Shown here: piece by piece, positions 26,617-60,500 of the stretch
Numbering within the stretch: position 1 is the first letter of the stretch
Layout: each line of letters begins with the position of its first letter
Origin: Rhizaria sp. SCN 62-66
Lineage: Eukaryota
Reading direction: 5' to 3'
DNA length: 64,000 nt
NCBI GenBank assembly: GCA_001724265.1
Contig: MEDY01000077.1
Coordinates: 1 to 64,000 of the forward strand
Program-made: the position numbers and the translations under genes
The notes under the pieces: model-generated
The model's database searches: none
What the model was told of the DNA's origin: nothing
The model's input: only the letters and a program-made list of their open reading frames with translations

Positions 26617-27548
26617 CTGTAATTTCAGAGAGTATAAATAACAGAAATTGTGTGTTAGTGGCAGTTCTATTATAGGTCTGTACTCGCACTTGTGTTGACG
26701 GATGGTGTAGCATGTGCTCTCGTGTCAAAGATCACGCAACCTCCGTGCAGTCTCCACGCACGCCAACCCGCCCAGCAAGCGCACGGACTGAAGTCCAAAT
26801 TGTTATATACTGGATGGGAATGGATTAAAATTGGTGATTTCTCATTTAACCATGTGCATATCATATTATATATTTGACACACTCGTTGGACTGCTGATTA
26901 TGTCATGATATTCCTGAGTTTTGACCACGCGCCCAACCCGCTCTCTCATCTCATCACTGCATTTCGTAGGTCTCTGCAGAGACATGCAAATCAACTGCAA
27001 CTCAACCAATCGCGTGTGCAGAGTGTATGCTGGTTGAAGGTGCATGCATTGCCGCTAGTCTGCAAAAACGGTAATCTTGCTCTCGTAAGAGCGCACTCTG
27101 CTCCATGGCAAACTTCCTCGACACCGACAAATGCCACGCTCTCTAATTGAGCACCAAAAGGTACAAACCAATTAAAACGCGGGCGCATGATGGGTCTGGT
27201 GCGCATATATTGCTTGCATGATTGTATATTTAAGCTGCGTGTTCCCTGACTGCATTTGTGGTGGCGTGAGAGGTGACTGTGAGCGAACTTCAAGTCAGCA
27301 AGGGTCAACCAAATCCAGGTTTATACTCCTCCCAATCTCCGTCACTACAAACTTCAAGTCATGTTATAATAGTAAGATACTTTATTGTATATATCTTTTG
27401 AGCTACTACCTTTGAATGTTTTCTAATCACTCATGTTCACCTGGAGTTCTTCTTCCTTCCTCGACCCCACTGTAGCACACACCCAAACTAGCTTCTTCGT
27501 ACATTTCAGAGCTTATCGAAGAAAAAGCGCACTCACTTCACTGCTCAC

Positions 27549-30500: not shown

Positions 30501-33500
30501 GACCGCAATGTCGCTCCTGCGAGCACTTCTGCGGCTGCTCTTGATAACGTAGCCGCGGCTGTGGTCGCCGATGCAAGTCCGTCTGTGTCGACTTCGTCTC
30601 TGGCAACGAGCAACACTGGTGCTGAACCAAAAACCATCAGCACCACAGCTCCAAGCCTGTTAGACCTTGCCCTCATCACAACGACGCCAACAACATCCAA
30701 GCCCAACTTGGTCACCACCGGCAGCACTAACAACATCAGCAGCCCTGTCGGCCCCAATGCCAACATGAGTACCAGCAAGGCTGTGACTACGCCCTTTGAC
30801 CCGTTTACGCTCCTTTCAAGCGGCATCTTTATCGGCGCCGCCCCGCAGTTACTGAACCAGTGCCCAGGACCGGCCCTGGAGCTCCGCATGGTATCGGTTA
30901 TCTTTGCAGAGCTCGGCGCAGCGGCCGCGGCCACAGCCTCGGCGAACCCCGAGTCGTCGTATCTGAGCACTGCTTCCGGCGCAGCTACCGTTGGTCTCGG
31001 TGGGTCGCTGCGCCGTCGTCAGTCTGCCAACATCTCTGACACCACTGCTGAAAGGTTGTCGCTGGCCGGTGTTACAACAGAAGGCAGTGTGGTGCCGGTC
31101 TGGCGTGATGGCATCTTTGCTGGCATGTTCGGCGACGCGTACATCGAGAACACGTCCTTCGAAGGCGGTTTGATCTCGCCGTCGCTGCTCGTACTCGGCC
31201 ATGTGCTCGACCGGGTGCTGAAGTCACAGCGGTGGTGGCTCGATGACTGTATTTCCACGGACAATCTCACCGCTGTCGCCGCCGTGCGTGCAATGTTCAG
31301 CGCTGCGCTGCCGCTTTCGAAGCAGGTCGACCTCTGCACGAGCGCGAGCTCCATTCTGTACCCATTCCTGCATCGACTGCGTCACAGCATCATTACCATG
31401 CCGATCGGCGGCACTCTGATCCTGCCCGGCGGCTGGCGCACCGCGACCTCAGGCCACGCGCTCATCTACATTGTCGAGCGCGAGACCGCGTTGACATACC
31501 GGTTTGTGCTCTTGAATACTGGCGACGGTTTAGAGTACCATCCTGCCTCGGCGCATCAACCGCCCAAGATCAAGGTGCGCACTGCAATCGCGCTTGCGAA
31601 CATCCCCGTAGCGCGCATGGCTGACGAGGCTTGGTGGCTTGCGGTGTATCTCTTGTTCGTAAAGCCAACGCCCAGCAACGGCGCCGACCGGCTCTATCAG
31701 AAGTACCTGCCGTTGCTTGCCGGGAAGCCGCTCGCAGCTGCCATTGCCGAGACGTACTACGACAAGGCGCTGACGTGGCGCACGCCGCAGCGCGCCGGCA
31801 CATGCTACTTCCGTTGCGTGCTCGAGCTGCTTCGATACTCACTCCTCAAGGCGGGGCTGACTGAGCAGCAGGCGAAGCGTGTAAAGTTTGCGTGCAAGTA
31901 CGAGCTTATGCTGATGGCGCGCAACGACCTGGCCTGCGCACGCGCAGTTGCAAGCAGTGACAAACGTCTGATGCTGATCGCGTGTCGCCAGCTTGCGTAC
32001 ACGGCGGGCAAGGGCGCCGCTGCAGGGGTGTTTGCTGTGAGGCACTTGCACCGGGTGCTCACGCTGATCGAAGCCGTCTAGAAAAAGATCGTCCGTGTCG
32101 AGTGTTCTGATGAAGACAGCGCTGGCACTCTGCCGCCGCTGCTGGAGCTGGAGTCCACAGTGCTGCGCGGCGCGATTACGGTCGAGAATGTTCCGATCCA
32201 TGAAGCGACTGCGGCTGATACACAGTTCACGTCAGAGTCGCTGGGTGGGGCTGTGAATCTTAGCGCGACCGATCGCGCTGCGGGCGACGAAGGTGAAGCC
32301 ACTGAGCGAACCGAAGACGACGACCTCGCCGTGAAGGCAATGTTAGTGTCGCCTGCTGATGACCAGCAGCAAAAGCACCTGGGTAAGAGCGGCGCGCATG
32401 ATAAGACGACTGTGAAAATTGACAATTCGAGCCTTTCTGCGAGTAGCGATGTTAAGCACGATGATGACAGTAAAGACAAGTCGGAAGTGAAGCCGCCTGC
32501 CACAGAAGCTAAGCCACGTCAACACGGGTACACTAAGTCAAGTGAGCAAGCCACGATCGCTGCAGTGCTGTCGGGAGATGTTCCGGTAGAGTCGGGCACT
32601 GCCTCAGCTGCGGCGCCTTCAGTAGTCCTTGTTCAGCCTGCAAGCAGTCGCGCTGCAAAGGCTTGCGGTGATGCTGCTGATAGGACCTCAGGTGTAAACG
32701 ATGATGACGGTGAGAAAATTGTCGTTCACGGAATTGAAGATAGTGTTGAGTCGTATCAGCAAGGCACTGCGACGCTGTTGCAACACCCTGGTAGTATGAC
32801 ACCGACGACGACAGCGTCTGAGATTCCCTCAGGTGCAGCGGTCAGCAGTAGCTCGGCACCCTCTGCCGAAGACAATACAACTGCGCTGGATATTGCGACG
32901 GGTACTGCCGCTTCCAGTCGTGAAGACAACGCGGTTACAACTGAAGAGGACACTATTCTGACACCTCAGGAGCCCCGGCCGCAACCACTCAGCGGGAAAG
33001 GCACGAGCGCAAGCGCTGCAACTCCCGTTGGAGATGCGAACAAAGAACCCGCAAATAGTAGTGGCAATAGCTCCAAGAGTGAGAGTGCGGTCTATGCGTG
33101 GGCGCAGCATCCGCTTTTTACACACCTGCTCCGCACTGAGGGTGTTGAAGGCCTTGCTGGCACAGCTGAACCCGACACTGCTTACTTGCCGGTCGATTTC
33201 CTTCAGTTGCGCACTCGGCGGTGTCGCACAGTCACACAAGTTTTAGATACTCTACGCCAGTGTGACTCTATACTGTCGTTGCTGTTCACACAGCGTGAAG
33301 GGATTAAGTGGGTGCCCGCGCGTGTTATCGCGACCGTGCAACACGTGCTACTCGATCTCCTGCCTCTCCCAACCCCAGGTACGCAATTGTGACGTTTTTC
33401 TTTGGTATTGCTTTCTTTGGTATTGCATCACCGTTTTTTTTTAAGTCTAACTCAGTTTCTCACATCTTCAACGTTAAATCTGGTTTTCTTCTTTGTGCGT

Positions 33501-36500
33501 AGGCGACTCGGAATGTGTATGGACTGGCGTGGATGTCCCTGGCGTGAGCACAGTGACTTATTCGGATCAGCTCGCTCTCCTGCAGATTCTTGTTCGCATC
33601 GCTGAGCATTTCACCGCCGCCAGTTTTAGTTACGAGGCGACGCGTGACTATCATGGCTCGTGTATCACCATCGCAGCCGCCCTCGCGATGTTTGCGGATG
33701 CAATCATCCGCAAGATCCCCACGGACCGCACGTCACTGCTCACGCGCCACCTGCTCGGCCGCGGGTTCGCGCGCGCTATCTACGCGCAGCACTATGGCCG
33801 CGCCGTGGCCGCTGCTGCCACAGCGCGCGCTGCTGGGGATGAAGCGACTGCGAATGAGCACGAGCGTGCTGCACGTTGGTGGCTGCACGCGAGTGAGACA
33901 AACGCAAAGGGCAAGAATACGACGCATGCTTACAAGGACAAGACAGATGCTCATGGTGCCGCTGCGGAGAAGCAGCAGGGAAAGATGCTGCCGCCGTTTC
34001 AGGGCGAATGCAGCGTCACTGATAGCGAATATGCGCACGCACCCTACGGCCTTGACCTCAGCGCATATGTGCGTCAGTCTCAGGTCTGTGAGAGCGCGTT
34101 TCCTGCTGCTATGGTTGGCCGCAACGCGATTGTGAACTACTTCCGCTCCATTGCGGTGCCTGTCGAAAATCGGATTTTTTGCTGGGAGGTACTCTCCGAC
34201 GGTGTGCCGGAAGAGTCGACGACAGAGCTGTTGCGCCACATCTGCTCCGCAACGCATTTCCCTTTAACTGCTCTGACGCAATATGCGGCGTCGGATGGCG
34301 TTCCGACGCATGCGCACGCGCGTCAGTGGCACCACCTGGTTGTGCGGCAGTTCCCTGAGTTTGCGCTCTATCGTGATATTTCAGTGCACTTTAAGCTCAG
34401 CCTCCTCGCTGATCGTGGGCAGATCCCCGTGCGGCCTGATTATGATCATCGCGATGCGCGGATTGAGTTTGTGCTTGACGGTGGCGGCTTGTATTTCGAC
34501 ATGTACGCATTTGGCCGCCGGCTGGACTTATCGTCAGCGGCGGGTGTTTCATTCACCTCAGCGGCGACAGCAGCAACTCTAGGTCACTCGGTGCAAGGCT
34601 CCAAGTCTTTACTCGGGCTCAGCTCGCTTTCCTCAAGCGGTGTGTCTGGCCCACTGCGGTTGATCATCGCGCCAGACACGGTGTGTATAGGCGTTGTAAG
34701 CACTGCTGCAGCTGAGGCCGCGACGTGGGCTGCGGTCATCAACGCGCAGAAAGCAAGCACGGACACGATCAAGCATGCAATGACAGGCTCACCGAAGGTT
34801 ACTGCTGAGAACGCGTTTGATAGTGTGGATATCACGACATCGGGTGATGTGAATTTTCCATCTGTGTCAGCGACTGCTGTCGGCGCAAACCCAACTCGCG
34901 AGGCTGCAATTGCTGCAGCAGCCGTGGCGTCCGCAATTGCTGCTGCAACTGCGACCACTGCGGGTGCTGGCCCAACTGATGCTCGAGTCTCAAATCTAGC
35001 CACAGATGCAAACAGTGTGAACCCGGTCGATGCCGCGGCGAGTGCGGGTGTAGCGAGCACTGGTCAGCTTGCTAGCCATGGTGGTATTGGTGCGAGCGAT
35101 AGGGAACACAACGGCAACGGCTCAACCAGCAATCTTTGCGCATTGAATTCTGCTGGTGACACATATGTGGGCTCAGACACACCGTCACCCGGCATCAGCT
35201 CGTCGGACTCTGGTGCCGGCAACGGCGGTGACCATGAAAACGACGCCGGGTCTGGGCTGCCGCTGGCAAGGTTGGCTTCAGCAGGTGGCGACTCTCCTCG
35301 ACTGTCCCCAGAGCCCGGCCCTGTCATCGACAACTCTTTCACAACTCCGCCTCCCCCCTTGCCGATCATGCTGCTGGACACAGAGGTGAGCTCTGTACCA
35401 TATTATGAACAAGGTGACAAAGATGCATCAACGGTGCCTTTATTCGGCTCAATGGCGTTTGCGCATGGCGGTGTTTTTTCACTCCCCGGTACAGATATGG
35501 TTACGGAGACTGCCGCTCACTTCCAGACTTGGGGAAATGACAACGCCGGTAACAATGCGTCTCATAACGGCGGGCCATCATTGTCAGGATCAAAACTTTC
35601 GAGGAAGTTGTTCACCAATCGTGGTGATAATCTTGGCAGCGCCCAGATGCCTAGTTTGCGCGCGATGACTGCGTCAACCTCGGCCGCTGCCGATGTTGCC
35701 GCCACATCAGTTGCCGTTGCCGCGGCGGCTGCCAGTCGCGAGGGTGGCGGGGCTCTCTACTTGCCAGTCGCAGACTCAGAGATCTTGCTTTCATATCTCA
35801 ACGTGCCCTACCTGCGACTGCCATTATTACTGCAGTTCTTCGCGCGCGAGGACCGTGTACAGTACTTGCAGTCTATCGCTGCACAGACGTTGCTAGATGC
35901 GGCCACGTTTGAGCCTGGTGGTGTGCAAGTGCGCCCACAGTCAGCGCTTGCTCATCCGCATTCTCACGACTACTACAGTGGCGCCGCTGTCAAGTCTGTT
36001 CAGCCTCCTGCAAATGCATCAAAGACCACCGCAGCCCAGTTCACCGTTGGAGCAGACGCTCATGCGGTCCTAAGTCAAAGTGACATCTTGCCAACAGAAG
36101 AGTGGCTTGTTCCAACTTACAATCGCGCACTGCTAACTACGCCGTTTGGCCTGCTGATGAACGAACTTGTGACGTCCCCAAGTGGTGTACTTCGTCCTAT
36201 CCGTAGGATTCTGACAACGGCGCTTGATCTTCAAGCTGCAGACGCAGTGGTTGATGCGCCAACCATTGCACTGGTGCTCTACGCAATTCGCCTCGCTGGT
36301 AAAGTGAACAACTATGTCGTTTACTTGACCACTGAACTCGCGCGCGACCCATGTGCACAACGCGTGCTGGCGTTGTCAAACATTGCGGTCACACCAGCAG
36401 CGCTCGTCATGTTGCGTCGTGAAGGTGCGGCTCTGATGAAGTTGCTGACGACACGCGCGTTCGACACGCTTGGTGACTGGACAAAGCGAGTCGAGTCAGC

Positions 36501-39500
36501 CTTCGGGCGCGACTCGAACGTCACGCGGCTGAACGAGCTCACGGTATTGCTGTGCCGCCTTCAAGCGCACCGCATTGTGATTGGGAGGAACGTAGCGAGG
36601 TTTCTATACACCCCATCGTTTGCAGTTGACGTTATCTCGAGTGTAACTACAATGTGCTTGCGGTCGTCCAGCATTAGCGGTGTTGCTGCTGGCACTTGGC
36701 GTGACCGTGCAGCCTCAGCGTTAGCGGCCGCGATGGCGACTGCAGCTGCCGACACAGTTGCATACCGCAAGGACGACATTACTGTTGCTAGCATGAACGC
36801 CAACGGCAACGCTACCACTCACACAAACCCCCTGAGCACAACAGTGAACACAAACCACGCGAACCTCGATGACCTTTCATCATCGGGTGTTCCAAGCGTG
36901 TTCTCAGCTGCTGGTGCGTACGGCAGTCCTGACGGTGGCGGCTTGACCTTTACGCAGATCGTCAACTCGACCGGTCTTTGCATGCATGAGCTCGTCTTAG
37001 CTGAAGTCGTTCAATCAAAGCGCCGTGTTGTGTGCCGGTATATTGCATCACTGCCTCACGACGTCGCATGTGCAATCCTAGACGCGTGTGTGCGTATAAC
37101 GACGGGCACAGGAACCAAGGAGCACGCGCGCATGCCGGACGGCAGCCTAGTTCCGCCACTTGAGAACAACTGGGGTTTTATCCCAGGACCGCACAATCGT
37201 GGCCGGTTTAAGATCATCGACACCACCGATAACCCTGAAGTCCAAGGCCTCGCGCCAGCGCCTGCAGAGACCGATGCACAAGCAGCCGAGCAAGGGCAGC
37301 AAAGACTCGTGAGCAAGGAGAGCGCGTCCTTGGTGCTTGACAGACAACGGTGGCAGCGCCAGTGGCGGGTGCCCGAAGGCGCAACGCCGAGAGCAAAGCC
37401 TGGCCAGACCGAGTCGACTGCGACTCGCTTTTTTGTGTCTCAGTCTGGTAGCAGCGGCAGTAGCGTTGAGAGCGCTGTAGCGCCGGTTGTCGCGATTGCG
37501 GGGCCCACAGCTCCAAAGGTGAACATTGCTGGCGCCGTGGCTGCAGCGGCGCTTCACCAGCCTCTGCTGACTGTGCGGCCTAGCAGGGTTGAAGATGCCG
37601 CGACGCAATATGGTATTGCAACCCCGTGCTATCATGCGCCCATGCAGATCAAAGCTGGTGACCACAAAATCAAAGGCAAACGCAAGAGTAAGCGCAAGGA
37701 CAAATCTAAGGACAAGGGCAAAGATCTGACTGAGACTGCGACTGACAGTAAGCGTGGCTCTGCCGGAGCTGAAGCTAGGCCGTCAATGCCAGCGCCAGAC
37801 TTGGCAGCAGCACGCTCGCAGTCACTCCACCAGCAACTCTCACCTGCGTTTCTGAGCTCTATGTTTGAAGTCAAGCCGCTACTTTCGTGCCGGCAGCCAT
37901 CGTTCGAGACGCCACACTGGCGCTTTAGTCGTGACGGCAAGACGATGCAGTCGTCATCATCACTACAGCCACCATCTTTAATGGCGCATGGCACAGCGAG
38001 CGCTGCCACGGCGACTGGTGTTATTGCGCTAAGCAGCCGTGGCTCTTTAACCGGGAGTACGAGGAGGTTTTTTGCAGATGATCTTAACACTCCGCGGATG
38101 GGGGCGGCCGCTGCAACGACAAAGAGTGCCTTCAAACTGGTTTCTAAACATGCAGCTAGCGCGGTTCCTCCTGATCAGCAGCCAAGAAGTGACCAAATCC
38201 TCATGGATGCTTCCAGCAATGGCAGATCAATTGCGAAGGCTGGTGCGAATGCACCGGCCGATGACAGCGGTATTGTTATGCTGAGCCCGAGTGCAATTGA
38301 CAATGAGAGCCGGACACCGTCGCCACTTGATCTCGCGCACAGCCATGCACAGTAGCCGGCGCAATCAAGTCTGACTGAGCATGTGCATGCTGCCACTATG
38401 TCCGAGGTGGAATCAGGCTCAGATTACGAGGACGGAATCATCGAAGAAGAGGAGGAAGAAGACGAAGACGCAGACGAAAGCCATGCCCGCGAACTTCACC
38501 GTGGCTATAGTTTCTCGTTTCCGCAAGAGTCATCGAAGCCGCAGCAGCACGACCTGGTTGATTCGACAACAGCCAGTCGCGGCGCACTGTCCAGCCCTGA
38601 TCAGGAGAAACTGACCCCGTTTGGTATGGGCATTGACGACTGTTGCGATCCGTATGACCCGTTCTTCGATCCCGAAGACGGCGAAGACTCTGAGGACGAG
38701 AGCTTTGCGTCGCTGTACATGCACCCCAACATTCACGACACGACTCACCACGGAATTGCGACGTATCTAGGCCTTGGTATGCCTAAGAATGCTGATAGCA
38801 GCGGCTCTCGCAGCTCTGCTCCAAAGGCACATTGTCCGACGCTGCGGCCTCCAGACATCCCAGTCGCACGTGGCGGCGCTTCGACCCTTGAGATCAACCT
38901 CCAGACCGGTGAGCTGACAGTGAAGGTCCGCCACATCAAGGCTCTCCCGCCCGCGTACCATGCCACCGCGCGCGCCTTGTTCGGCACGGCAGAGCTGCAG
39001 TGTGCCACTCTGTCGTCTGCGCAACACCGCGAACTGCTTCACCTTGTCGGCAGGCATCATTTTGCGGCGAAGTGGACCCCGGACCCCACAGTGTGCCCGC
39101 ACACATGTCTCCGACCGTACTCACGCAGCGCGCTGACTGCCGCGGAAGAGTGGCTAGAGCCAGTATTGGATCCAGTGATTAACGCACGTGGTTCTGCGTT
39201 TTCTGACTTGCGCGAGTACGTTCTCATGATGCCGACCGAGACTCTCTCGCCCACAGCGAATGTCGCGAAGCTAGAGCTGCTGCATCCCTCGAAGGGGCTT
39301 TGGAAGGAGATTTACGCGATCAAGGACCGCAGCACAGTCCATGTATACGACGTATTCTCGCATGGCCGTCGTCGCCACAGGCGGCTCACCTTTTGCACGG
39401 ATAACCGCCTGAGTCTGCGCGACATGGACGCGTCAACAGCGAGCCGCGATGAGCCGTGGGCTGACTGGGAGCGCCATTCTGCCGGTGACCCATCTGCGAC

Positions 39501-42500
39501 GCTAAACAATACGGTCACGATCACATATGTTCGCGACCACAAGTTGCGGACGAACTTTAGCGGGACGTATGAGCGCCACGTGGAGCCTGAGGCATTACAG
39601 GGCGTCTTACCTGCAGCGCTTGTTGACGCATATGTGTTTTGGCAAGATGAGCATGACACGATCCGCGGCTATCCCGTCACAATCACGCATCCGTTGACGT
39701 ATCTGTACATCCGCATTTTGCCTGCGCACAGTGCGGCGAGCAACAAGGTTTCCGGGGGCATTGGAGCCGGCGCCATCGTTGCGCGCCGCATCATGACTCC
39801 GGCGCAGACGCGGGCATTCACGCGCACAGCTGATGCGGAGGCCAAGGCTGCGGCCGCAGCGGCCACAGCTGCGGCCGCAGCTGCGGCGACTGCTCTTGCA
39901 GCATGTAGGAAGGATGGCAAGAGCAAAAGTAAGAGCGGCTCTGCCTCTGCGAGTGATAACAAACCTCCAGCCGCAGCCACTGCGACGACTGCTGAGACTG
40001 CGATTAATGTCGTTTTAGCTCCTGCAGCAACCGCTGAGGAGACAACTGAGTCCTCGAGCACTGACGACGAAAGCGAAGACAGTGAACCCGGTGCGTACCC
40101 GCGTGGTAACACGCGGCGTCGTTCTAACTCGCGTGTTCGGGCACGGTCGCGCTCACGCGCGCGCTCACATGCCGGCCGCAACGTTTCTCAGGGCCCGTCG
40201 CAGCCCGCAACAGCTCCGCCGGGCCACACCGCGGCTGCTGTGCAACAACAGCAGCAGCAGTTAGGTGATACTGGTGATGCTGTAGATGTTGATCTTGACA
40301 GCACTCTTGATGAAGGCGTGTCCTATTCTAACGAGGTTTTCTTGGTTAACTCTCTGTACGCTCCTCGCAATAGTTTTCTGTACAGTCTCGTGAGTGTGTT
40401 GACAAGGATTGAGCGTATGGGATACATCCTCGTTTGGACACGCACGCGTCCTCCGGAGCTCGACACTTACTTTAGCGACAACGACAACAATCACGCGGAC
40501 GACGCTGCTGGCAAAGGCGCTCACTCAGACGCGAGTGCAAGTGTGAACACAGCTGGGAAGACAGAGCCCACGACTCCGTCGATTGATCACATTGCTTTGC
40601 CGCGCCTGCAGCTATCGTTTAGTGCGCGCCGCAACCATCACGGTGAGCTGCGGCTATACTGCCGCGAGCATCCCGAATTCTTCATCTCCAACTTCCGTTC
40701 CGAAGGATTGTATCAACTGCTTCGCGGCATCCCACACTCGCTGCTGCTCTCGACCAACCACCACAGCTACCACTTGCTTGTCCCTCTAGTCCGGCTGTAC
40801 CGGCCGCAGATCGCATGCTGTCCATTTTCGACGGAGCTAGTGCTCTCATATGCGCGCACAGATAGCTTTTTTGGCTCACAGACGCGGTTTGTGATGTATC
40901 CTGTGCATACGACTCTGAGCTTCCTCTTCACACCAACGTTAGCATCCGGCTTATATCTACTGGCCTTGCGCCTATTCCACCGTCGTCTAGATGAGGCTGT
41001 TGCGTTGATTGCATCAACAGCAACCGATGAGCGTCTGCGCAGTGATGAGCGCGCAATTTTTGCGATGTTAGGCGAGATTAGCAACGATCACCACCCTGAC
41101 ACACACGCGTGCCGTCTGCTTCTTTCGATTGCCACGATGGACTCGGACATTAAGTGGCCCTGGTCGCTGTCGACAGAGTATCACCATTACGTTAAAAAGC
41201 TGCAGCACGTCTCCGCTGTGTGCCGCCTTACGACTAGCGCAGAGTTGCTCATTGGCGAGCGAGTAACGGCAGTGCCGACGATCACACGCGCTGGCGACAT
41301 TGCGAACGCATCCGTGAACACCGGCAATGACGCGCCATTGATGGTTCTACGCAATCTTGCTACTCAACTATACTTGCGCTCAGTCAAGGAGCCTCTGGCT
41401 TCGTGTAGGAGAAAGTACGACGCCAACTGCGGCCTAACTTTCGAGGTGTTGCGTCACCGGTCGAGTGACAACGATCCTGATCCTGAGATTGTTGCGATCA
41501 AGTCGCCGTTCAATGAGTACCTCGCACTGCCAAAGCTCTACGGGTATTTACATGAAGACGCCGGAGCGTACACCGTTGAAAACGCGACCAACAATCTTAA
41601 AGACGATGAGTCTGACAGTGACGATGATGAGAGCGACGCCCAGTTTGCGACACTGTTTCTCACTGGGGCCTTCACTGATAACTTTGAAGCGCGGAATCAA
41701 AAGATCAGGAAAAGCCAGACGACGAAGCCATGGCAGGATGAGAGCGTTGATGTCACCGATTACAACGCGTCTCTTAGTGAAGAAGGGCGCTTTGAGTGGA
41801 TTAATCCCCTTGGAGGCACGATTCCTGATCGCTGCCGCTTTTTGCTTCACCACATTGGTAGTGACAGCAATGGCTACCCTGTTGTTGCACTGCAAGGTCT
41901 CCGCAATGATGGCAGTGGTCATAGCAGGCCGAGCTATCTTGCTTTCACTCGCAGGCGGCTTGATTTAACCGCAGCGCGCGCCAGCCAGCCCAGTGCATCC
42001 GCTGCATCTGCTCCTGCTTCAGGTGGCGGCAGCAACAATAACGATGGCGATAATAGTTCCGACTACAGCGGGAGTTACAACGCTGCTGTTACTGCGCGTG
42101 AGTCGGACGAAGCATTGGTTGTGATCTCGCACAAGCTTGACAACTCCGCGCTGTTTCTGTTTGCGCCTCGCTCCTACGTTGTGCCACCTCCGGCAATTGT
42201 ACGCAACCGCTTCGCGTATCTCAAGGCTGTTTGCAGCGGACAAAGCAGTGTTGCAGTTGTCTATGACAGTTGCCCGACGCTGGAGCTTGCCAAAGACGAG
42301 ATCTTTACGGGCGACGTAATCAGCAAAGGCGCGTGGATTGCTGGAGTTCATTGTGCCGCCACTGCGACCGGGGACACCGAAGCACTTGCGGATCGCAGGT
42401 TTAAGAGTATAAGCAGCAAAACGGGCATCTACGCGCCCAAGGCGTCTTGTGAGCGGGAAGCGGCTATGGAATCTCCCGAGTGGTACCTGCGCCCCGACAC

Positions 42501-48500: not shown

Positions 48501-51500
48501 TGCTGCACTAACTGAGACAAAGGCGTACTTCAAGCCTGTTGACCCAAGCGACAGCCAGGTTCGAGTGAAGCCGTTTGCTCCAGATACCAAGTTGCACAAG
48601 CATGGATCTGCGTTATCAAGCTCGAGCTTAAGCTCGGGCAGCGGACTTGCATCGCAGACGGCCGAGGAGAGTAAGCGTCCCTGTGAGTGGGTGTTTGATC
48701 CTGCCTACTTAGTATTTGAGTACATGCGCAACATCTCGCTCCGTGACGCTCAAGTATCATGCGTTGATAACTTTCTGTTGACGCGCGACGACAAGACAAC
48801 GGTTCCATCAGGCCTGGCACTTAAGTCCCCGCTCTATACGAACCCTCGGAACGCGAAATCCAGCTCGTGCAGTCACGTGAACTCTCTTATGTCGAGTGCG
48901 GGCGAAATTCAAAACTCAATGAGTGATTCTGCAACTACTTCGACAGACTTGAGCACCTCATTGATTGTTGACCGTGGTGTCAATCCCCGCTGGGCGGCAA
49001 AGTGCCCGATTGTTTTTCCGCCGGCCCTAGCCGCTGCTGCGCTATCGCTGTCGTCATCGACGCCACGATCGCAAATACGGCAGCTAATCATGGGTCAAGG
49101 CAAGACCACGATCATCAGCCCGCTCCTTGCGATCCGCCTGAGCGACGGTGCACGCCTATGCGTTGTAATGACACCTCCGGCGCTGCTGCCGCACACGCGC
49201 GAAGTGCTGCGTGTTGCCTTCGGCAATATTCTCGGCAAGCGCACAGTTGCGTTCGACTGCTCGCGCCGCGAAGTCATGCGGCCGGAGACGTTAAGGAAGC
49301 TTGAGATTGCGCGGGTGGCGCGCTCAGTCGTGATCACAACGCCGAGCGACGTTAAGTCCCTGATGCTGAAGCTGATCGACATCGCAGTCCAGCTTGTTGA
49401 GTACCTGCGTAACCAAGAGATTGCTGTTATCGTTGCGACTGGTCAGATGCCGTCTCTGGCGACCGGCTCGTTCGGACACCTTGGAGTGCAAGTCGCGAGT
49501 GATAAGTACGCGCATGTTGCAACGGCGCTCCAACACGCGACAACGAGAAAGAGGTCTGGGGCTGCTGAGACACAGACAGCTCAGTCGCAGATGCAACCGC
49601 AGTTGCATGCCCCGCTTGCGCAACGTGGTCTGCGGACTGTCAGCACGGGACTTAGAGACATCGAGGAGCACGGCGAGTATAGCCCGAGCACCATCAACTC
49701 GGCCGCTGCTGAGACTGGCAGCGTCGTGCGCCCGATGCACGAGGAAGAAGAGGAAGACGGTGTTGTTGCGACCGGTGAGTGTCTTAGTCCAGGACATTTT
49801 TCCTCAACATCAGCGCCGCATGCAACAGGTTTCGGGACCGGGAGCACTCCTAACAACTACACTACTCTCACTCAGGCAGGGACGTACAGCAACATGGCTC
49901 CGTACGCGAGCAACGCCGATAGCGAAGGCGTTGCGGCAATCGCAAATACGGCTGCTGCTGTTGTCAACGCTTCGACTGCAACCACTGATCCGACCGATGC
50001 GACGAGTCGTGCTCCGAGCCCCAGAACGGTTGCTCGCTCAGCTGCGGCGACTTTGGCGGCTGCGGCGGCGGCGGCCAAGTGGCGCAAACGCGGTGGTGAG
50101 ACTGTGGCCGCCGATGACGACGGCATTGAAGTTGTGACTTCTGTGGTCAACCCCAACTACACCTTCGATAACTTAGACACTAACGTCAAGGTCGACACGG
50201 CGGCAACACCTAAGAAGCCAGAAAGGGAAGTCGTCGTCCAGACAACCGAGATCACTAGCCCTGGCTGGAAGAACGTGTTCCCTCCTCTTCCGCGCTCTCT
50301 CGAGCCCCTGTACACCGAGGCAACCACTATTGCGCGCGTCTTATCTCTTTTCAAGCACAGTACACTCATCATGGACGAGGTTGATCTTCTGCTTCACCCA
50401 CTCAAGTCAGAACTCAACTTCCCTCTTGGCAGCGCGAATGCGATTGAGGCAGCGCCGCACCGGTGGTCTTTGCCGGCTCACCTCATCGACGCAGTGTTTT
50501 TTACCTCAGTCGGCAGACTGCCGCTCTCATTCCGCCAGTCCTCGCGCGCAGCTGCAGTACAAACTGCGATCAAGGCGGAGGCCGAGGCAGGCGTGAAGCA
50601 GATGGTGCTGCAGTCCTCCCCGCACCTCGTCCTCTTAGACGTCGCTTACTATCACGCGAAGCTGAAGCCCCTGTTCGTTGAGTGGCTGATCTTGTACTTG
50701 GAGCGCGCGGGGATCCCGTTAGATTTATTCTCCGTGAATGACATGACAGCGTTGTTTATGCAAGGCTGCAAGTTTGCGCGGTCAGAGTGTGCGTACACGT
50801 GTGTTCATTCGTTCTCTGGGTTCAGCTCTGTTGTTGCTGATAGCATTGACGCTGCAAGCACAGTGGCCCCTGTGTCAAGCGCCGTAGGCGTAGCGAGTGC
50901 CCCACAGCAACAAACGGAGCAGTTGCAGCGATTGCAGCAGCAGAACACTGTACAGCAGCAGCTGCATCGTCCAACGTACTTGCGTGCACACACTGTGCCC
51001 ACGGCTTCTGGTCCAGTTTCCCCTCAGCCTGAGACGCGGACTGCGTCTGTGGCGGCGAGCGACGGGGAAAGCGGCCACTCGCCGCGGTCCGAGAATGCCG
51101 CTGTTTCTGACGTGAGCATGACCAGTGATCGTGACAACAACGATAACGAGAACAATAACGACGCGAACAATGCGATTGCGGGTGTTGCAGCAAATGTTTG
51201 CGAGAGTGAGGACTCAGAGTCGCGAACCCGGCCCAGCACGGAAAGCTCTGATAGCTCGGTGAGTACTGACGCGGAACAGCAAAGGCAACTTGACCACGGG
51301 GGTGGTCTATGTGCGGTGTGCTCCGTGGTGCTAACACAACTTAGGTGCCGCAACCTCGCTCCGCAGACATCTCACGCGAATAACGGTGCCAATGGCGGCA
51401 GCAAGAGCACCGGCAACAGCAATGAAAGTTGCGGCAAGAACCCAAGCGCATGCCTTTCAAGACGGCTCAACCTAACCGCGCACCGACTTGCATTGGTCCC

Positions 51501-54500
51501 GTTTAAGTACCGGACGCTGCTGCGGCTTGGCTTTGACTGGCTGAACCAATACCTGCCTCACGTATTGCAAAAAATCAACCGTATTACATACGGTCTCATT
51601 ACCAGCAACAACACGAACGCTAACATGTTCAGCACAAACACGTATCCTACCTCCAACAATGGCAACGCAAACTCGCAAGGTGCTGCTGTTGACAGATTGC
51701 CGCTTGCCACTGCATCGCGCCTGGCACTGGCAGTGCCTTTCATTGGCAAAGACGTGCCTTCTCGGTCAAGTGAGTTCTCGCATCCTGACATCACGATCGG
51801 ACTTACACTGCTTGCTTACCGCTATGATGGTCTCCGTGGCAGTGACTTGGTGAAGCTTATCACGGGTTTGCAGAGCGCTGTGGCAACTGAGGCAGGTCCG
51901 CCCGACGCACGGCTTAGCGCGTCTTTATATAGCGCATGGGTTGCGGATGCGGGGGGTCGTGTGATGACTAAGTCGCGGAGCATTGCTGAGAAATCAAGCT
52001 GTATAGTTAAGGCAAGTCGTGAATGCCCGAGGGTGCACCCTGACGAGTGCGGAGCTTGCAGCTCGGCTGGCAGCGATACGGCTTCATCGTGTAGTGCGGC
52101 TGTGAGTCGGACCACAAACGTAACTGCCAGTCACGACGAGATTGATGTCAACGCCGAAGTCAGCGCTGATGAGGAGCTTGAAAGCTACTGCAATGATTCC
52201 GGATTTTCCAGTACCAACGAGGAGACAAACGTAGGTGCCCGCAGTTGTATTGCAGATCAGGTCCGCTCCCTTGCTACGCCCACTGTTCTTCCACTACGTC
52301 TGCTGAAGCCCACGCACACCTCGCAGATGACGACCTTGTTTGCGCTGTTACGCAGGTACCCAGAGGCTATCACACATTATCTCGAGACATTCGTCTTTCC
52401 CCGGCATCTGCCGTATTCTGGCAGCAAGATTGCTTCTTCGGGACAGGATCTCGGCTCTGAGATGCTGTTTGACGCGCGCATCGGTTACTCTGGCACGCCG
52501 TCAATGCTGATCCCACGTGAGATGGGCGCGTGTTACTATCAGACCGGGCAGACGGCGAACACGATCGCCACGCTCACGTCACCGGACAGCGCTGATGTCG
52601 ATATTCTGCCGTCTAACTGGACTGCGTTGTCGATTCTTGCCCGCGTTGCGAAGACAAGCCGCTACCACGCACTTATCGACACTGGCGCGCTCATCACAGG
52701 ACTAAACAACCAGCAAGCTGCAGAGGCTCTGTTGGCGCTTGGTCTTGCGCGTTTTGACGGTGTTGTGTTCTTCAGTCAGGCCGATGTGCCGATGGTGCTA
52801 CACCGCAAGCACGCGCGTGTTGTGCCTTTTGCACAGTGCGGTTTGCTCCCGCACCGTCGCTTTACGTTTTATGACCAAGTCCACACGACTGGCGCCGACA
52901 TCATGCACCCGCTTGGTGCCGCCGCGGTGCAGACGTTGGGCAAAGACATGACGTTCCGCGACCTCGCACAGGGCGCTTATCGCATGCGTGGACTGGGCAA
53001 AGGTCAGAGAGTCTGTTTGTATGTCATTCCTGAAGTTCAAGCGTTGATTATGCGGCAGATTGAAGCATGTGTGCTTTCAAAGCTAGTCAAAAACGAAGCT
53101 CAAACGATAGGGCCGGAGTCAACTTTGATGTCTACATCTGCGGCAGCACTTGTGCCGCTCTCTGGTTCTGACGCGAAGTGTGATTGCGTTTGTGCGCTTG
53201 CGCCATTGGCAAACCACTATGCAAAGTGTTTCTTCTCATCTTCTTCTGGCTTCAACAAGACTAAGCCTGTTGGCGCAGATCCTCATGTAAACGTTGACAA
53301 AAGCAGTGCAGCTCCGAGCGGCACTCCTGTGAAGTGCCCGCATGCTCGTGAGCACACTCAGCTATGCCTGCTAGCAATCCTAGCCTGGTCGTTCCTGAAC
53401 CTTCTCGAATCAGAGGTGCTTCAGTTCAGGCAGCTATGCTTGCAGTCAATTGCGGGCATTTACCGCAAGAGCGCATTCGGCATTGTGCAACGGTTCGTAG
53501 CCAAAGCATTCTCGTCTCGCCGTGGTGGCCAAGGCAACGGCCGGGCCGGGAAAGATGAGACACATTCACCTGACCTGCAAATCAACAAGAGTGGTGCGAG
53601 CGATATTCGTGCTGCTGTGCCCGCGAGCACTGCTCCCAGCACTGATAGGCCGCCAGGTGCTGTCGCCTCTTACACGCGTAAGCACACGTACACGACCGTG
53701 GTTCCACCAAGCACAGCTTTGGCTGCCACACATGCTGGCAGTACCATCACGAACATGAGTGATGACAGCAGCGAAGACGACTGCCCCAGTCTTTCGACGG
53801 TTAGTAAAGCGCTGGCGTTGTTGTGTGACCCCGTCTCCTATCAGGTTGATACCGAGTTCACAATCATGCCGCCACTACCAGCGGGCATGCAGGAGCACCT
53901 AAGTCTTGCAGCGTCAGTGCTGAGTGAGCAAGATCAAGAGCAGATTACGGCATTATTGACTGTCTTACGCGCCGTCACACTGCGCGCACTTAGCGCCGAC
54001 GGCAGCTCTGACAGTAGCCCAAGCGCAGACACAGCCACAAATGCGAGCGCAGTTGAGTCCCTAGCCCCACCACAGGCTGGGAGGGTCCCCGGTAGCGACA
54101 GTGTTGAGGCTATTGTTACTGACGCTGCTCCGACCGAAGCAGAGTCGTCAGACACGGGCGTGTTTGCAGGCACCGCGCCCGATGAAGATGCCACACTCGC
54201 ACTTCGGAGGGCGATTGCAACCGCGGTGAGTGCTGCGACAGCGCCGTACACTTTGCTTGCTCCTAAAGTTATCCGGGCTGCGACAGCGGCGTACAGTCCT
54301 GTCGTAAGTACGAATACGGGCGCTGCCGACACTAACGACGGTCAGCCGCCTCGCTCTGACGCCGTGGGCGCTTACACAGGTCCTGACTTTGCGTCTCTTG
54401 CGCTATCCCTTGAAGCCGTGCAAGTCCGCGTTTCATAGCGCGAGAGCGACCGAGAGTCGCAGCAAACCCGTGAGGTGGAGCAAGAGACCGAGGAGGACCG

Positions 54501-57500
54501 CCGCCGCGAGCGCGAGAGCAATGCGCCCGTAAGAGCTGCGGTGGTGCCGTGGAAGCTGCGCCGCCTCGCAGTGCCCGAGGGCTGGAGTGGGGTGTTCTAC
54601 CCGCTATCCGAGCTTAAGCTGGGTGTCAACGATGTGTCGCTGCGGTTTCCGCCGTATATCTTTGTCTCGCGCAACTACTACGATGCGCCGAACACAGGCG
54701 TTCACCGCAGCAGTAGCAGCATTAACAATGGCGAAAGCCGCAGCGGGGCGCAAGGCAGATCCACAGGAGACGACGGCTTTGGTGGTGTGAGTGCAGACAA
54801 CGTCACAAACAGCGGCGACTTGACGATGGGTGGCGAGCCCGCTGGTGTTGTGAACAGCATCAACGCGGTGTTGCCGCCTGTCACCATGGTGCTTGATGTG
54901 CTGTATGACACTGCTGTTGTTCAAGAGCGGTTTCACCCGACGTTCAACAACCCGTTTGTGCTGACGCCGATGGCGCTTGAGCTGCTCGGCGAGCCCTTGC
55001 TGTGCGGTGTATGGCGTGAGATGGAGAAAATGTGGGCGATTAACGAACAAGACGCCATGAATAATGAGAACGTCGACAGCAGTAAAGTCATCAGTGGTGA
55101 AGCTGTGGTTCACCCGCAAGTTCCTGCAAGTGTCACAACGAACGCTCGAAGTGTTCTTAAGGCAAGAAAGCACAAGAAGCAGGCAAAAGCGCGGATCACC
55201 ACAGCTGCTAGCAAGAGTGTCACTGAAGGCGGCCTAACTTCCAGCTCTTCTGCCTCCAACAGCAGCTTCCCCGACCTGAGCTCAATTACGGCGCTGCTCT
55301 CGCGCATTTGCCGCCGTGTTGGGCTGCTGCGAGACGAGCAGCCCACCCTCGCCGGACGGCGCATGCTGCTCGAAGTTGTGTCACTCTTTGACCTTAACGG
55401 CGACGGGCTTCTTGAACTCGATGAGCTGCGCTATATGCTGCAAGCAATGACCGGTGTTGAGCACACCGAACGCGCATATACGAGCATGCTCCTGCAGTTT
55501 TTCCGGCAAAACCCTGTCGATTCACTGTGCGAGTTCCCAGCGCTCGCGGACCCTGCCGTGATTGCACAGCTTGCCGATCCGACCAACAAAACCGTGCCCC
55601 GTGCCCTGAGCGCGCCGTACACGGTTTCTCAGGCGCACTTGCTGCTCGGGCAAGGTGCGGCCCGCGGCCGCCACCGTGGACGTCGCTTTGTTGTGGTGTC
55701 ACTTGCAGAGGCGGAAACGATCTACCGCGCGATTCACACGCGCTCGGCGCAAGATCTGCCAATCATTCAAGAAATCTGCGCAGACATCTCCAAGAGTATC
55801 AACAGCAGCACCGACAACAGCGGAAGCGTCCCGGTAAAGATCCGCGCCGTCGGCATCGCCCTGCGTCAGCTATCGCCGGATGCGTTCCCCGCTGTGGCCG
55901 CGTCGAAGCACATGCCTCCGGCAGCGCCGAACCAGCTCAACACGGTGCATCAGTGTCTCCGTCTGTTTAACGGCGAGTTGCAGTTCAGCGATCAAGAGAT
56001 CACTGCTTTGTTCCGCGCGCTTGTGCCGAACCCACCGTCGCGCATCCGTGCCTTTTTCGCCGCAGTCACCGCACACCGCAAGCTTGCGACACGGAGTCTG
56101 ATTGCACAGTCTCCTGTGGCGCAGCTCTGGGCCTGGGCCGGCCCGCTCGCGCACTTGCGCATGCGACTTTCCCTTGCGAAACTCGCACACCACGCCCGCA
56201 TGCGTGGACTTACTGTGGAAGCGATGTTCACCGCGTTCAATAGCAGCGGCACTGGGCTGTTGAGCGCGAGCGAAGTGTTGACGCTGTGGGCGTGGCTCGG
56301 GATTGGCTGCTTAAGGACTGACGGTAAAGGCAAAGTGTGGCTTCAAACGCAACCCGGAACGGATCCCACTGCTTGCAGCATCGGGAAAGTGGCGCCAACA
56401 GTGATTGCAACAGATGCGGTGTCATCAACGACCACAGAAAATCAGCCTACCGTGACTGTGGCTTGTGGAAGCTACAGCACCGCAAAGAGCGCTGCTGACA
56501 CGGTCATTACAGCGAGCATGCCTCAACCTGACCGTAAGGGTGCAACGGCGAGTGAAAAGCAGAGGAAGCGCAATAAAGAGTCGCGCACCAGGGTGACCGA
56601 GTTAGACATCCGCTCTGAAGCGCTGCGTGTGCTTGAAGTCATGAAGCTCTTTGACAAGGACTGCGATGGGCAGGTCTCGCTTGACGAGTTTAAGCAAATG
56701 CTCTGTGTCGGTGAGTCGACGCTGAGTAGTGCAACGAGCGGGCTGGTTGGCAGAACAGTTTCCTTGTTACCGCCTCCGCAGCCGTCGTATGACGCTGAGG
56801 TGCACGCGCCGCGGCGCGTCACGGCGGCCGAGATGCAGATGGCATCTGCAGCGAGGTCGCGGTTACTGTCGAAGGCAGAGGGTGGCTACGACGACAGCGA
56901 GAATACGTGTATGTGCTTGTCTGTAGAGCCTCGCGAATACGCTTCGGCTGCGCCGCAGTTTGCAGTTGCAACAACGGGAGCAAAGGCTGCTGCAAAGGCT
57001 GGAAGCATATCCGCTGTAGCTGGTGACGGCTCTGGGCACTACGCACCAAGCTCATCGTCCTCCTCCTCATCATCATCTTCCTCGTCGTCATCGCTGTCGA
57101 CAATGGCGCCACTGGGGTCCTCGGCGGCTCGACCGGCGCTTACTGCAGCAGTGATGAGTGGAACGAGCGCGAGCGGCACAAACAGTGCTGCAAGCAAGGA
57201 TGACGGATCAGCGGTGGTCAAACCGACCGAGTCGGTTGCAAGTGCGACTACAACTGCTGACACAACTATGCCAACGACTGACAAGACGAACTCCCACGTC
57301 GAGTTTGACAACAGTGTACTTCCGATTAAAACTGTCACGATTGGCATCAAGACAGTTGCACAGCTGTGCAAGGAACTTGCCATGCGCCGCAGCATCACCG
57401 CCGACGCCGAGTCGCACATGTCCGCGCTTGCTGTGCAGCACAGGCTGTACTTGCAGTCGCTGCGCGTGATGATTGCGACGCTAATTGGCGGTGTGTCGCC

Positions 57501-60500
57501 GTGCGAAGGCTCCGCGGGCGGTATGGTGTGGCGGTTTACTCGGTGCTTCCTGCCTGAGCGTGTTGCCATTGTTATCCCAGCGCGGCATTATGAGAGACTT
57601 ACGCTCAATGACACAAGCGCTGGCAAACTCTCGAGTAATAACGACGTCGCGGGTGTGCGGCGTACCGGGTTTGTCACGCTGATGTGTGGCGAGTCGCTGG
57701 ACATTCGGGACCCATTCACGAACATGATTACATCCTTTGCCACTGTTGGTAACAGCCTCCGCGACATCCATAGTGCAATTCCCTACGATGCGATTGCACG
57801 ATGCAGCGACGCCCTTGCCTCAGAGCGCGGCGTTGCAATTTACGCGCCCGACCGTGAGCCGCGGAACCTCTCAGCCCCACGTGTCGCTCTCACATCGCAC
57901 CCCTTAGACGCGCTCTCAGTCTGCGGCGTGAGGCTGCCCAGCTTCCACACGGCGCGCGCACTCGGACCGGTAGCGATGGCGACGCAAGTCTCCGATCCGG
58001 CGTTTGAGCGCGGACTTGTGTTGTCGCAGAAGAACATCGACAGGCAATGCTTAGTTGCACAGTCCATAGTTGCAGCGACTGCCGCTGCTATGGCCGCGAT
58101 TCGCCGCGCAGCAAAAGATGAGAGTGCCAAAACTGGAGAATCTACGACTGCGCTCGGCTCCTCCGTGGGTGTAGTCAAGGCGCAAGAGACAAGCAGCACA
58201 AGCGCAAGTAGCACTCGTGGCGATTTGAGCGCTTTGGCGCCGGCCGTTGCACCTGTTGTTACGATTGCCGGTACAACGCCATTGGTTATGGTCACTGCTG
58301 AAAACGCTGACACGGACGTGATTGTTGACAGCAACACTGTCACCAGCGCGGATGGTACTTCGAGTGACACCAGCGATCGCGAGGATGGAAAGAGTTAGGA
58401 TAGCGCGTCCAGTCGCACGAGCAGCCGCTCCACCCAAAATCGCATCTACAGTCAGACAACAGACAGCGTCGCAGTGTCCCTGTCAGCAGCCGTTAAAGAG
58501 CCTGTCTATGCTGAGATGCGCGCCGCAGCTGCTAACAGTGCGCTGAAGCGCGTGTGTGATGTGATGGCGCTTGTTGACTCGGAAGGCAGCGATAGTGCGC
58601 GCGCAAAGGGGACCGGCGATGGCTCGCAGTCACGCTTGAAACTGCGCTTGAAGGCGCGGTCGCGGTCTTCACTGCTTGCATCACGCTCACAGGGGCGCTT
58701 GCAGAAGTTAGTCACCAGCTTACAACCACGGGCTTCCGGTGAGCACCCACGGTTACAGCAACAGTATCAACAGCCGCCGCAGCAGAGCAGCTCTGGTAAG
58801 AAGTCCAGCTGCAAGAGCAGCGAGCGCGAGCACGATGACGCGCATATTGTGATGATGAAAGTGCTTCAGGCTCAACTTCCTTAGTCGCCACCGCCGGGTG
58901 CGCAATCGCCGTATCACTACAGCCGCGCTGGTGTTAAGGACAAGATCGCCGATGTTGAGCGTGACGTGGAACACCCGACGCCGGCGTCGAATAGTTTGCT
59001 CTTGCCACCTGAGGATCGCAAGACGGCGCCCCACGATGATAAACCCAAGGCGACATCGGCTTCTGGCACGGCAGCAGGTGCTAAGCACGCTGGTGTTGAC
59101 GCCAACGTGTACGGTAGCGTTGCAATTGGAAGCGATGGCAAGATCGACTGGAGTGCCGGCGCTCCGGGCTCAGAACGTCAGCTCGTGATCTGGGCTGTGC
59201 CGCAGCTGCTGCGTCTCCTAGTTTGGGCTCGAGTCGGTTTCAACCGGAGTGCAACGCTGCAGAAGATCAACCCGTGGGCTGTGCAGCCCGAGTCGCTTGC
59301 CCCGTCGAGCAATGAGACAGCTGCCTCTGATGACAGCAGTAGCACTGCTGGCGCTGCAGTCAAACGCACAAGTTCTGACTCGCGCTCACTGTTGCCGCTA
59401 CTTGCCCAGCGCTTTCTTGCCGCAGTCGACGCCGCAACGAAAGCGGGTGTAATGGTTGCCTCTCAGTCGCCGCCACGCGAAGTCATGATCGCTCTTTTCC
59501 AACTCTCGTTCTGCGGCCTTGCCTCCGCAATGGCGCACGTGTCACCCCGCCGTGACATGCACACCGCGTTTGCGCTGCACGCGTCACTACTGCTACATTT
59601 GCCGCCGTCGCGCTCTGTTGTGGTCATCGGCAGCAGCAATTCCGGCGGTGGGGATGGCGCGCAGCAGAGAGTTGAAGGTCTGGCTGCGAACGGCGGCGGC
59701 CGCTGTGTCAACATGTACACTGTCATCATGACTGTGAAGCTAGACCGGCTGCCTGGGGGCGGAAGGCTCGGCTGTGCTGGTGACGATGAGGCAGACTTTG
59801 ACGACGATGATATGGATGATGATGACAATGATGGCAGCTTTGAGCGCTTTGTGTTGTTCACACCTCATCCATACTCGCTCACAACGCCGCAGTCTCGTGC
59901 ACTGGCACTTGCAGCAACGGGCGCAGCAGGCGACATCGGTTCTGGCTACGGCGGGGACACAAGCGTTAGTATCTCTGCAAACCTAAGCAACTCTGCGAAC
60001 ATTGCCCTGACAACCGCAATGAACTTGCTCACCGTCGACAGGTTCGGTCGCGTTCGCATCGGCTACACAGGCCTGCCTCCAGTCGCCGCCGCTACTGCAG
60101 CCACAGTCGCGACAGCGGCGCGCGCGCGCATGATTGCGCAATCACAAGCTCAGGCACAGTTGTCGAGGGCCCAACAACAACAACAACAACAACAACAACA
60201 GCAACGTGGTGGTGGTGGTGCGTCCGCGGGCGGCGGGCTCCGCCGGCCGATGCCATCTCCGACCACGCCCGTTATCAGTGCAGGTCTTAGCACGGCCCCA
60301 GGCATTGCTACACCGCAACAGCCTTTGGATGCTGAGGATGTAGCCGCTGTGGAGAGTGACAGCAATGATATTGAAAGTCTTGCTGCCGCCAGTGCGTTTG
60401 ACTACGACCCAGTGTACGAGACCGAGTACGGCGCTGGCTTGCTGAAGTCCAAGGCGCAGTACATCGCTGCTGTGCAAAATCAAGCCGTCGCGTTGGACAA

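Follow-up and report, generated by a model that had tools for sequence, protein, structure and literature searches.

Does UAG specify an amino acid in an uncultured protist that still uses UAA and UGA as stops? The question is raised by a giant gene in the 64,000 nucleotides analysed here (positions 1 to 64,000 of contig MEDY01000077.1, referred to as the window), a metagenome contig from a bioreactor/wastewater sample. The gene starts at an ATG at 27549, runs past the window end at 64000 and comprises 12,067 codons within the window; its frame is interrupted by seven in-frame TAG codons. To give the protein that its homologues encode, this gene (>12,067 codons) needs seven UAG read-throughs. 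We consider it probable, on the basis of one gene of one metagenomic contig, that UAG is read as an amino acid, with UAA and UGA as stops, in an uncultured, intron-poor protist rich in guanine plus cytosine (GC).

The gene is predicted to consist of three exons and two GT-AG introns, all on the + strand. Exon 1 (27549..28344) begins at the inferred first ATG (MSEHKPGF...), lies in a stop-free frame at 27492..28352 and ends at the donor CAAG/GTGTGT (28344/28345). Predicted intron 1 (28345..28470; 126 nt, GT..TTTTAG, GC 0.33) was chosen among six in-frame stop-free pairs for its canonical donor CAAG/GTGTGT, its T-rich acceptor TTTTAG and its low-GC dip. Exon 2 (28471..33378) is an open frame that contains the first TAG and is homologous to the N-terminal parts of homologues P0012, P0040, and P0007. 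Predicted intron 2 (33379..33502; 124 nt, GTACGC..GTGCGTAG, phase 1, GC 0.35) carries the frame from 0 to 1. Exon 3 (33503..64000) leaves the window and holds the six remaining TAGs, the DUF3638, DUF3645, and EF-hand domains, and high-scoring segment pairs (HSPs) to P0012, P0040, P0009, P0013, P0006, and P0007. When TAG is translated as X, the open stretches of the + strand are 28398..33392 (one TAG) and 33478..63999 (six TAG, 10,174 codons). GC over the gene is 0.55-0.61; 100-nt windows with GC <0.42 are found at the two introns and in one window at 46226, and nowhere else in the gene.

The in-frame stops in the 12,067 codons are seven TAG, zero TAA, and zero TGA, a UAG density of ~0.6 per 1,000 codons. 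The other frames of the same DNA hold TAG, TAA, and TGA in numbers of 86, 51, and 232 (frame +1; 369 stops) and of 112, 115, and 436 (frame +2; 663 stops). TAG 1 (32079..32081, residue 1469) stands in the context LIEAV-X-KKIVRV, in a column that is not conserved as judged by eye; TAG 2 (38353..38355, residue 3519) in HSHAQ-X-PAQSS, a low-complexity region; TAG 3 (46471..46473, residue 6225) in HQSGR-X-FILKAG; TAG 4 (48328..48330, residue 6844) in the Gln/Pro-rich run QQQQQP-X-QPQAQP; TAG 5 (54436..54438, residue 8880) in a conserved motif, the sole TAG so placed; TAG 6 (58396..58398, residue 10200) in DGKS-X-DSASS, and TAG 7 (58882..58884, residue 10362) in QAQLP-X-SPPPG, both in low-complexity regions. 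The flanks of all seven (120 nt on each side) have a GC of 0.50-0.68 compared with 0.33-0.35 in the introns, and the TAGs are therefore not in intron-like sequence. No pyrimidine tract upstream and no donor site nearby was seen at any of the seven when the sequence was inspected. The possibility that the TAGs are the ends of tiny or in-frame introns was ruled out by the flank composition and the absent splice signals. The bases that follow the seven codons are A, C, T, C, C, G, and T in that order, with no common nucleotide context. An earlier description made from the letters alone (the sequence-only reading) had placed seven TAGs in a region of ~36 kb with no frameshift and no in-frame TAA or TGA, crossed by two ordinary introns and coding-like in composition on either side of each TAG; the codons were all found where it had put them, the frame was unbroken, both GT..AG stretches exist in the sequence, and the composition of the flanks agrees with what it had described.

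The product is a member of the giant P-loop proteins with DUF3638 and DUF3645, some of which are named 'ubiquitinyl hydrolase 1' by UniRef. Pfam matches were obtained to DUF3638 (E = 3e-21; 76.2 bits, curated cut-off 31), DUF3645 (E = 6.4e-13; 48.3 bits, cut-off 25), and EF-hand_1 (E = 3e-12; 45.6 bits, cut-off 25.4). The domains lie within 46474-58884, and their order (DUF3638, DUF3645, C-terminal EF-hand region) is that of the family. Ninety-five relatives were found, from many protist groups and among unnamed metagenome proteins; most carry the same Pfam pair, and the best reach 46-51% identity over the conserved cores. The homologues that were fetched are 2,960-3,524 amino acids long. The window product exceeds them three- to fourfold in length, the excess being made up of long insertions, rich in Ala/Ser/Thr/Gln, that separate the conserved blocks.

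The conceptual protein was compared by BLAST with six fetched homologues (P0012, P0040, P0009, P0013, P0006, and P0007). The HSPs to P0012 follow each other in order (query 1012-1493, 1813-2003, ... 3697-3959, 4187-4483, 6567-6648, and 7090-8494 versus subject 186 to 3399), and those to P0006, P0009, and P0013 reach query 9508. The TAGs at residues 1469, 3519, 6225, 6844, and 8880 have HSPs on both sides, and two HSPs run across a TAG: that of P0012 (query 1012-1493) over residue 1469, and one of P0006 over residue 8880. Since the series is colinear with single homologues, five TAGs lie inside a region that matches one protein elsewhere; that family motifs are intact up- and downstream of the TAGs, as had been noticed from the letters, is borne out by these HSPs and by Pfam domains between and after TAGs. 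Downstream of the last two TAGs, at ~63871-63948, there is a weak match to residues 2779-2804 of P0006 (26 residues, pairwise E = 0.002); this C-terminal match may be taken as a hint only. TAG 46471 is spanned in the protein collection by no relative besides the window's own fragment (one match).

Further copies of the DNA, and a relative of it, were found in other sequencing runs. Runs of two further studies (years on record 2017 and 2024) contain 50% or more of the words sampled from 46000-55999, so that the sequence is represented in wastewater/bioreactor samples of three studies overall. The stretch 32000-51999 was compared with four runs. TAG 38353 recurs in run X3, which belongs to another study and has a contig that covers 36542-38988 with zero differences; a contig of run X7 (151 nt, 46334-46484, zero differences) covers TAG 46471 and extends only 11 nt past the codon. 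P0100, a protein derived from an open reading frame (ORF) that ends at TAG 48328, and P0005, which ends at TAG 54436, are each found on three contigs. None of the runs found to contain the stretch is on record as RNA. Run X4 is labelled RNA-Seq and is probably DNA; those of its pieces that are listed span none of the TAGs, and it gave no joint at intron 2. Numerous foreign contigs align to the CAG/CAA-rich stretches 48283-48417 and 44200-44680 (up to 378 deep); the joints that appear there are spurious and are no evidence for rearrangement.

Run X6 represents a relative that diverges from the window by ~5-7% at the DNA level over most of the 20 kb compared, with ~996 differences, mostly transitions. 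Its eight listed contigs have from 5 to 155 letters different each (seven at ~4-7%, the eighth, in the intron-2 region, at 0.4%). Of 13 indel entries, 12 are listed, and seven of these belong to X6. Six of the seven are coding, all multiples of 3 (9, 3, 9, 6, 6, and 3; for example, +CAG at 38493 and +CTGCCTCTA at 39982); the sole X6 indel among the listed entries that is not a multiple of 3 is a single base inserted at 33436, within intron 2. Among the differences listed for 48345-48807, just downstream of TAG 48328, 21 of 30 fall on codon position 3, six on position 1, and three on position 2 (hand count). Because the coding indels listed for X6 are all multiples of 3 and the differences listed show an excess of third positions, the reading frame on either side of the TAGs is, as judged from these comparisons, under purifying selection in the clade formed by the window organism and X6. 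The signs of a pseudogene (frameshifts, mixed stop types, relaxed constraint in relatives) were not found in the giant gene.

That UAA and UGA still terminate is indicated by genes next to the giant gene. The gene for a cGMP-dependent protein kinase (PKG) closes with a TAA at 19179..19181 on the - strand; its last exon (205 amino acids) aligns to its final residue with the final residue of human PKG1 chains (6bdl_A, 143-347 of 347; 7t4t_A, 265-469 of 469; 7lv3_A, 413-617 of 617), so that it may serve as a control for UAA as a stop. A control for UGA is the TGA at 9280..9282 (+ strand) of an Rrp9/U3-55K-like WD40 gene, whose acidic C-terminal tail ends level with that of its relatives P0102 and P0103 and is then followed by the TGA. 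All together, the six neighbouring gene ends that could be defined use TGA (three) or TAA (three), and none uses TAG. If TAA shared the meaning of TAG, ~3.5 in-frame TAA would be expected in the giant gene from its ratios of GAA to GAG (166:339) and of CAA to CAG (196:333; codon usage counted over 11,838 codons); zero were observed. UAA and UGA are thus both used as terminators and both absent in frame, and the part of the sequence-only reading that had kept these two codons as stops is upheld.

Homologous loci of other organisms were used as controls only. They come from JGI metagenome contigs searched with the conserved core (286 relatives, 80 kept, best 58% identity); a first scan of these contigs gave 270 pattern matches and no relative among them. 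If TAG is taken as sense, the ORF grows by >100 codons in only two of the 80 loci (L054 and L075), and from 2,035 to >10,174 codons in the window. L063 and L067 (GC 0.33) have several TGA; only the first is within the homologous region (codon 1151 in L063, 728 in L067), and the rest are near the 3' end. An internal TAA and an internal TAG were observed in L008 (L008/L009). Some of the control loci with internal stops may come from organisms with other variant codes, and others may reflect errors or introns. The closest loci, L001/L002 (58% core identity, GC 0.51-0.52), have an unbroken ORF, up to 4,963 codons long, whose stop is a TAG after a zinc-finger-like tail. TAG is thus a terminator in that organism, and any reassignment is not common to L001/L002.

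Several observations weigh against reading UAG as sense. In-frame TAG is present in one gene only, and a conserved column is found at one of the seven TAGs, the other six being in non-conserved low-complexity sequence. UAG is far less dense than in the codes already described (PMC5304391: 384 UAG over 71 genes in one, 204 over 126 in the other). The ~5,000 codons of the other genes of the window are without an in-frame TAG, where ~2.9 would be expected at the density of the giant gene (P(0) ~0.06). That none of six gene ends is a TAG is weak evidence, as only 13 of the 71 control loci that reach a stop have TAG as the first one downstream (P ~0.3). A single internal stop with homology on both sides was found in five of the 80 controls (TAG in L075 and L054, TAA in L029, TGA in L063 and L067), and a lone in-frame stop therefore means little in a gene of this family; seven in-frame stops of one kind differ in weight from one isolated stop. 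Finally, random nonsense mutations at the codon usage of the giant gene would give TAG in 51-54% of cases, so that seven out of seven has P ~0.01. The sequence-only reading had put the chance of seven identical stops at (1/3)^6; this was overstated, as codon usage gives P ~0.01 and not 0.001, and the case against chance alone is therefore weaker than had been claimed. The absent frameshifts and the conservation in the relative outweigh the chance figure as evidence. What remains of that reading, UAG as sense with UAA and UGA as stops, is carried by the colinearity, the purifying selection, the lack of in-frame TAA and TGA, and the TAA of the PKG gene, and is weakened by its restriction to one gene and by its inflated statistics.

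The chance figure and the low-complexity setting of six of the TAGs would suit a gene in which the TAGs are real stops, that is, a recent pseudogene or a set of nonsense alleles, all of them TAG since CAG, GAG, AAG, TCG, and TTG are the commonest precursors; the internal stops in the five homologous metagenome loci would suit it as well. Seven nonsense changes imply, by a rough estimate, some 100 further substitutions or more, together with several indels, whereas the 36 kb hold zero frameshifts, zero TAA, and zero TGA; the X6 relative is in frame, with coding indels in multiples of 3 and third-position differences also downstream of TAG 48328, and the pieces listed from the runs of other studies (2017, 2024) are identical in sequence. 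We regard decay of the gene as decidedly unlikely. A dual, context-dependent UAG, which would terminate at gene ends and be read through inside genes, or a read-through peculiar to a few very long low-complexity genes, fits the great rarity of the codon in frame (seven in 12,067 codons, and zero in the ~5,000 neighbouring codons); ambiguous codes are on record (PMC4967479; 10.1101/2022.04.12.488043, both in the parts available), and with only six gene ends examined, termination at TAG may occur elsewhere. Such a dual codon is nevertheless unlikely: TAG is found at none of these six ends, the bases after the seven codons share no context, and seven read-throughs per mRNA would each require near-complete efficiency.

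The data on DNA alone are also compatible with an mRNA from which the TAGs have disappeared, by RNA editing (e.g., U-to-C, giving CAG) or by unconventional short excisions, the standard code being kept. We know of no nuclear editing or excision system of such a kind. The flanks of the TAGs are ordinary coding sequence that lacks the GT..AG pair and pyrimidine tract of the two introns, and no common sequence context is present that could guide editing; an altered mRNA is very improbable. An artefact, either a chimeric metagenome contig or a systematic base-calling error that makes TAG, comes to mind because the window is a metagenome assembly whose CAG-rich stretches at ~48283-48417 attract foreign contigs. 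It would have to yield TAG only, always in frame and never an indel, and it would have to recur in the other-study contig that passes over TAG 38353 with zero differences and in the identical TAG-bounded ORF proteins on three contigs, which makes it barely credible.

If UAG is indeed sense and UAA and UGA are stops, UAG would be decoded by a tRNA with the anticodon CUA or by efficient near-cognate decoding, and eRF1 would no longer recognise it. The rarity of UAG and its position mostly in poorly conserved low-complexity segments are what might be expected of a young or weakly used reassigned codon.

The amino acid may be approached through the site at TAG 54436. In the BLAST alignments that span it, the column holds Glu in 27 of 29, Leu in one, and a gap in one, the register being uncertain in this periodic E/Q-rich segment; BLAST alignments were used instead of a strict regular expression for the motif, which was found in only 10 of 80 loci. 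The window reads E-A-V-Q-V-R-V-S-X-R-E, P0006 reads E-M-V-Q-A-R-V-Q-E-K-E, and most others read E-M-V-Q-E-Q-E-x-E-x-E. TAG 48328, for its part, sits in a Gln/Pro run. UAG would most likely encode Glu or Gln, about equally likely as judged from these sites; other meanings, including Leu, are unlikely.

The comparison with known codes draws on the available parts of the papers cited. UAG and UAA nearly always change meaning jointly, and the few codes that separate the two are the main evidence for discrimination by eRF1 (PMC5304391). The sequence-only reading had stated that UAG-only codes are known from few lineages, and this is confirmed for the rhizarian exLh and Iotanema spirale (PMC5304391) and for phyllopharyngean ciliates (PMC11687900). 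The rhizarian exLh (Sainouroidea) reads UAG as Leu and stops at UAA and UGA; 384 in-frame UAG were found in 71 genes, with Leu at 82 of 86 hyperconserved sites, from RNA-seq (PMC5304391). It resembles the organism of the window in that UAG alone is in frame, in its terminators UAA and UGA, and in being uncultured, non-ciliate, and represented by sequence data only; it differs in that the window has seven UAG in one gene, known from DNA only, and a single conserved site that points to Glu and not to Leu. The fornicate I. spirale reads UAG as Gln and has UAA as its main terminator (204 UAG in 126 genes; PMC5304391). It likewise shows a UAG-only reassignment with moderate use of UAG, and Gln is also, beside Glu, a candidate for the window, given TAG 48328 in its Gln/Pro run; but it is an anaerobic metamonad studied through its transcriptome, whereas the window is GC-rich DNA of bioreactor/wastewater origin in which TGA equals TAA in number among six gene ends.

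Phyllopharyngean ciliates have undergone three independent reassignments of UAG, to Leu or to Gln, with UAA as the preferred stop, suppressor tRNA genes, and widespread UAG (PMC11687900). They share with the window the reassignment of UAG alone and the origin of the cases in the mining of metagenomic and genomic data; suppressor tRNA genes were identified there, whereas ARAGORN found no tRNA gene in this 64-kb window. The window carries several genes and ~125-nt introns on GC-rich DNA at least 64 kb long and is presumably unlike a ciliate macronuclear genome.

Two further systems bear on Glu. The oligohymenophorean ciliate PL0344 has UAA and UAG encode different amino acids (PMC10553269). The decoupling of UAG from UAA, and possibly Glu as the meaning of UAG, would be shared with the window, but UAA is also sense in PL0344, while in the window it is never in frame and closes the PKG gene. 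UAG is said to be Glu and UAA Lys in that ciliate. Blastocrithidia nonstop reads UAR as Glu and UGA as Trp and also uses UAA as a stop (PMC12153298). It offers a non-ciliate case of a UAR stop codon decoded as Glu, as would hold for the window if UAG is Glu there, but all three stops are reassigned there, whereas 12,067 codons of the window are without TGA or TAA. Codes in print, as far as the texts found in a full-text literature search show, have UAG alone as Leu or Gln, and UAG as Glu solely together with a reassigned UAA; the search returned no report of UAG alone as Glu, nor of a code of this kind in wastewater protists rich in GC. The organism of the window is a probable further case of the known UAG-only code variants.

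More specifically, it is possible, although doubtful, that UAG alone encodes Glu, with UAA and UGA as the sole stops, in a GC-rich lineage of eukaryotes from engineered water systems that had not been sampled before. A Glu-only reassignment would be young, as suggested by the ~0.6 UAG per 1,000 codons and by L001/L002, which still end the same gene at TAG. If true, it would be a new code variant, and the lineage together with its X6 relative could reveal a stop codon in the course of becoming sense. Apart from its meaning, another UAG-only code would be an independent data point from a non-ciliate organism in the wastewater/bioreactor samples of three studies. The pair formed with the close relative X6 could show the first spread of a reassigned codon, here rare and mostly in low-complexity parts, and would allow an analysis of codon exchange and of the ratio of non-synonymous to synonymous substitution rates (dN/dS) at the TAG sites. 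Gene callers that apply the standard code split the giant gene; P0005 and P0100 are such fragments, and public collections therefore contain wrongly annotated proteins of this lineage.

As to the remainder of the window, a fragment of a V-ATPase proteolipid is found at 1-255 (- strand), followed by a RhoGAP protein at 1640-3954 (- strand) and the Rrp9/U3-55K gene at 7297-9282 (+ strand). A low-complexity protein rich in Ser/Ala/Gly/Asp, which has poly-Gln runs and gave no match in Pfam, is encoded at 11086-13677 (+ strand), and the cGMP-dependent kinase gene, with three exons, four cNMP-binding stretches, and Pfam matches to Pkinase and cNMP_binding, at 19179-22133 (- strand). No match to rRNA or other RNA was obtained with Rfam in the window. 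The Rrp9-like protein has its metagenomic relatives P0102 and P0103 at 64% and 59% identity, the next, named, matches being at <=43%; this suggests, as far as protein similarity goes, a clade of uncultured organisms around that of the window. The named matches of the giant protein and of Rrp9 are scattered over oomycetes, Bodo, dinoflagellates, arthropods, and green algae (35-51% identity). The organism may have a rhizarian (sainouroid) affinity, in the group with the known UAG = Leu code, or belong elsewhere; its code could share an origin with that of exLh or, as the sequence-only reading had thought possible, have arisen independently. In the OGG1-like gene at 13933-17505 (- strand), OGG_N is matched over residues 44-359 by a profile of 115 positions, with very large low-complexity insertions; large insertions of this type may be a general habit of this genome.

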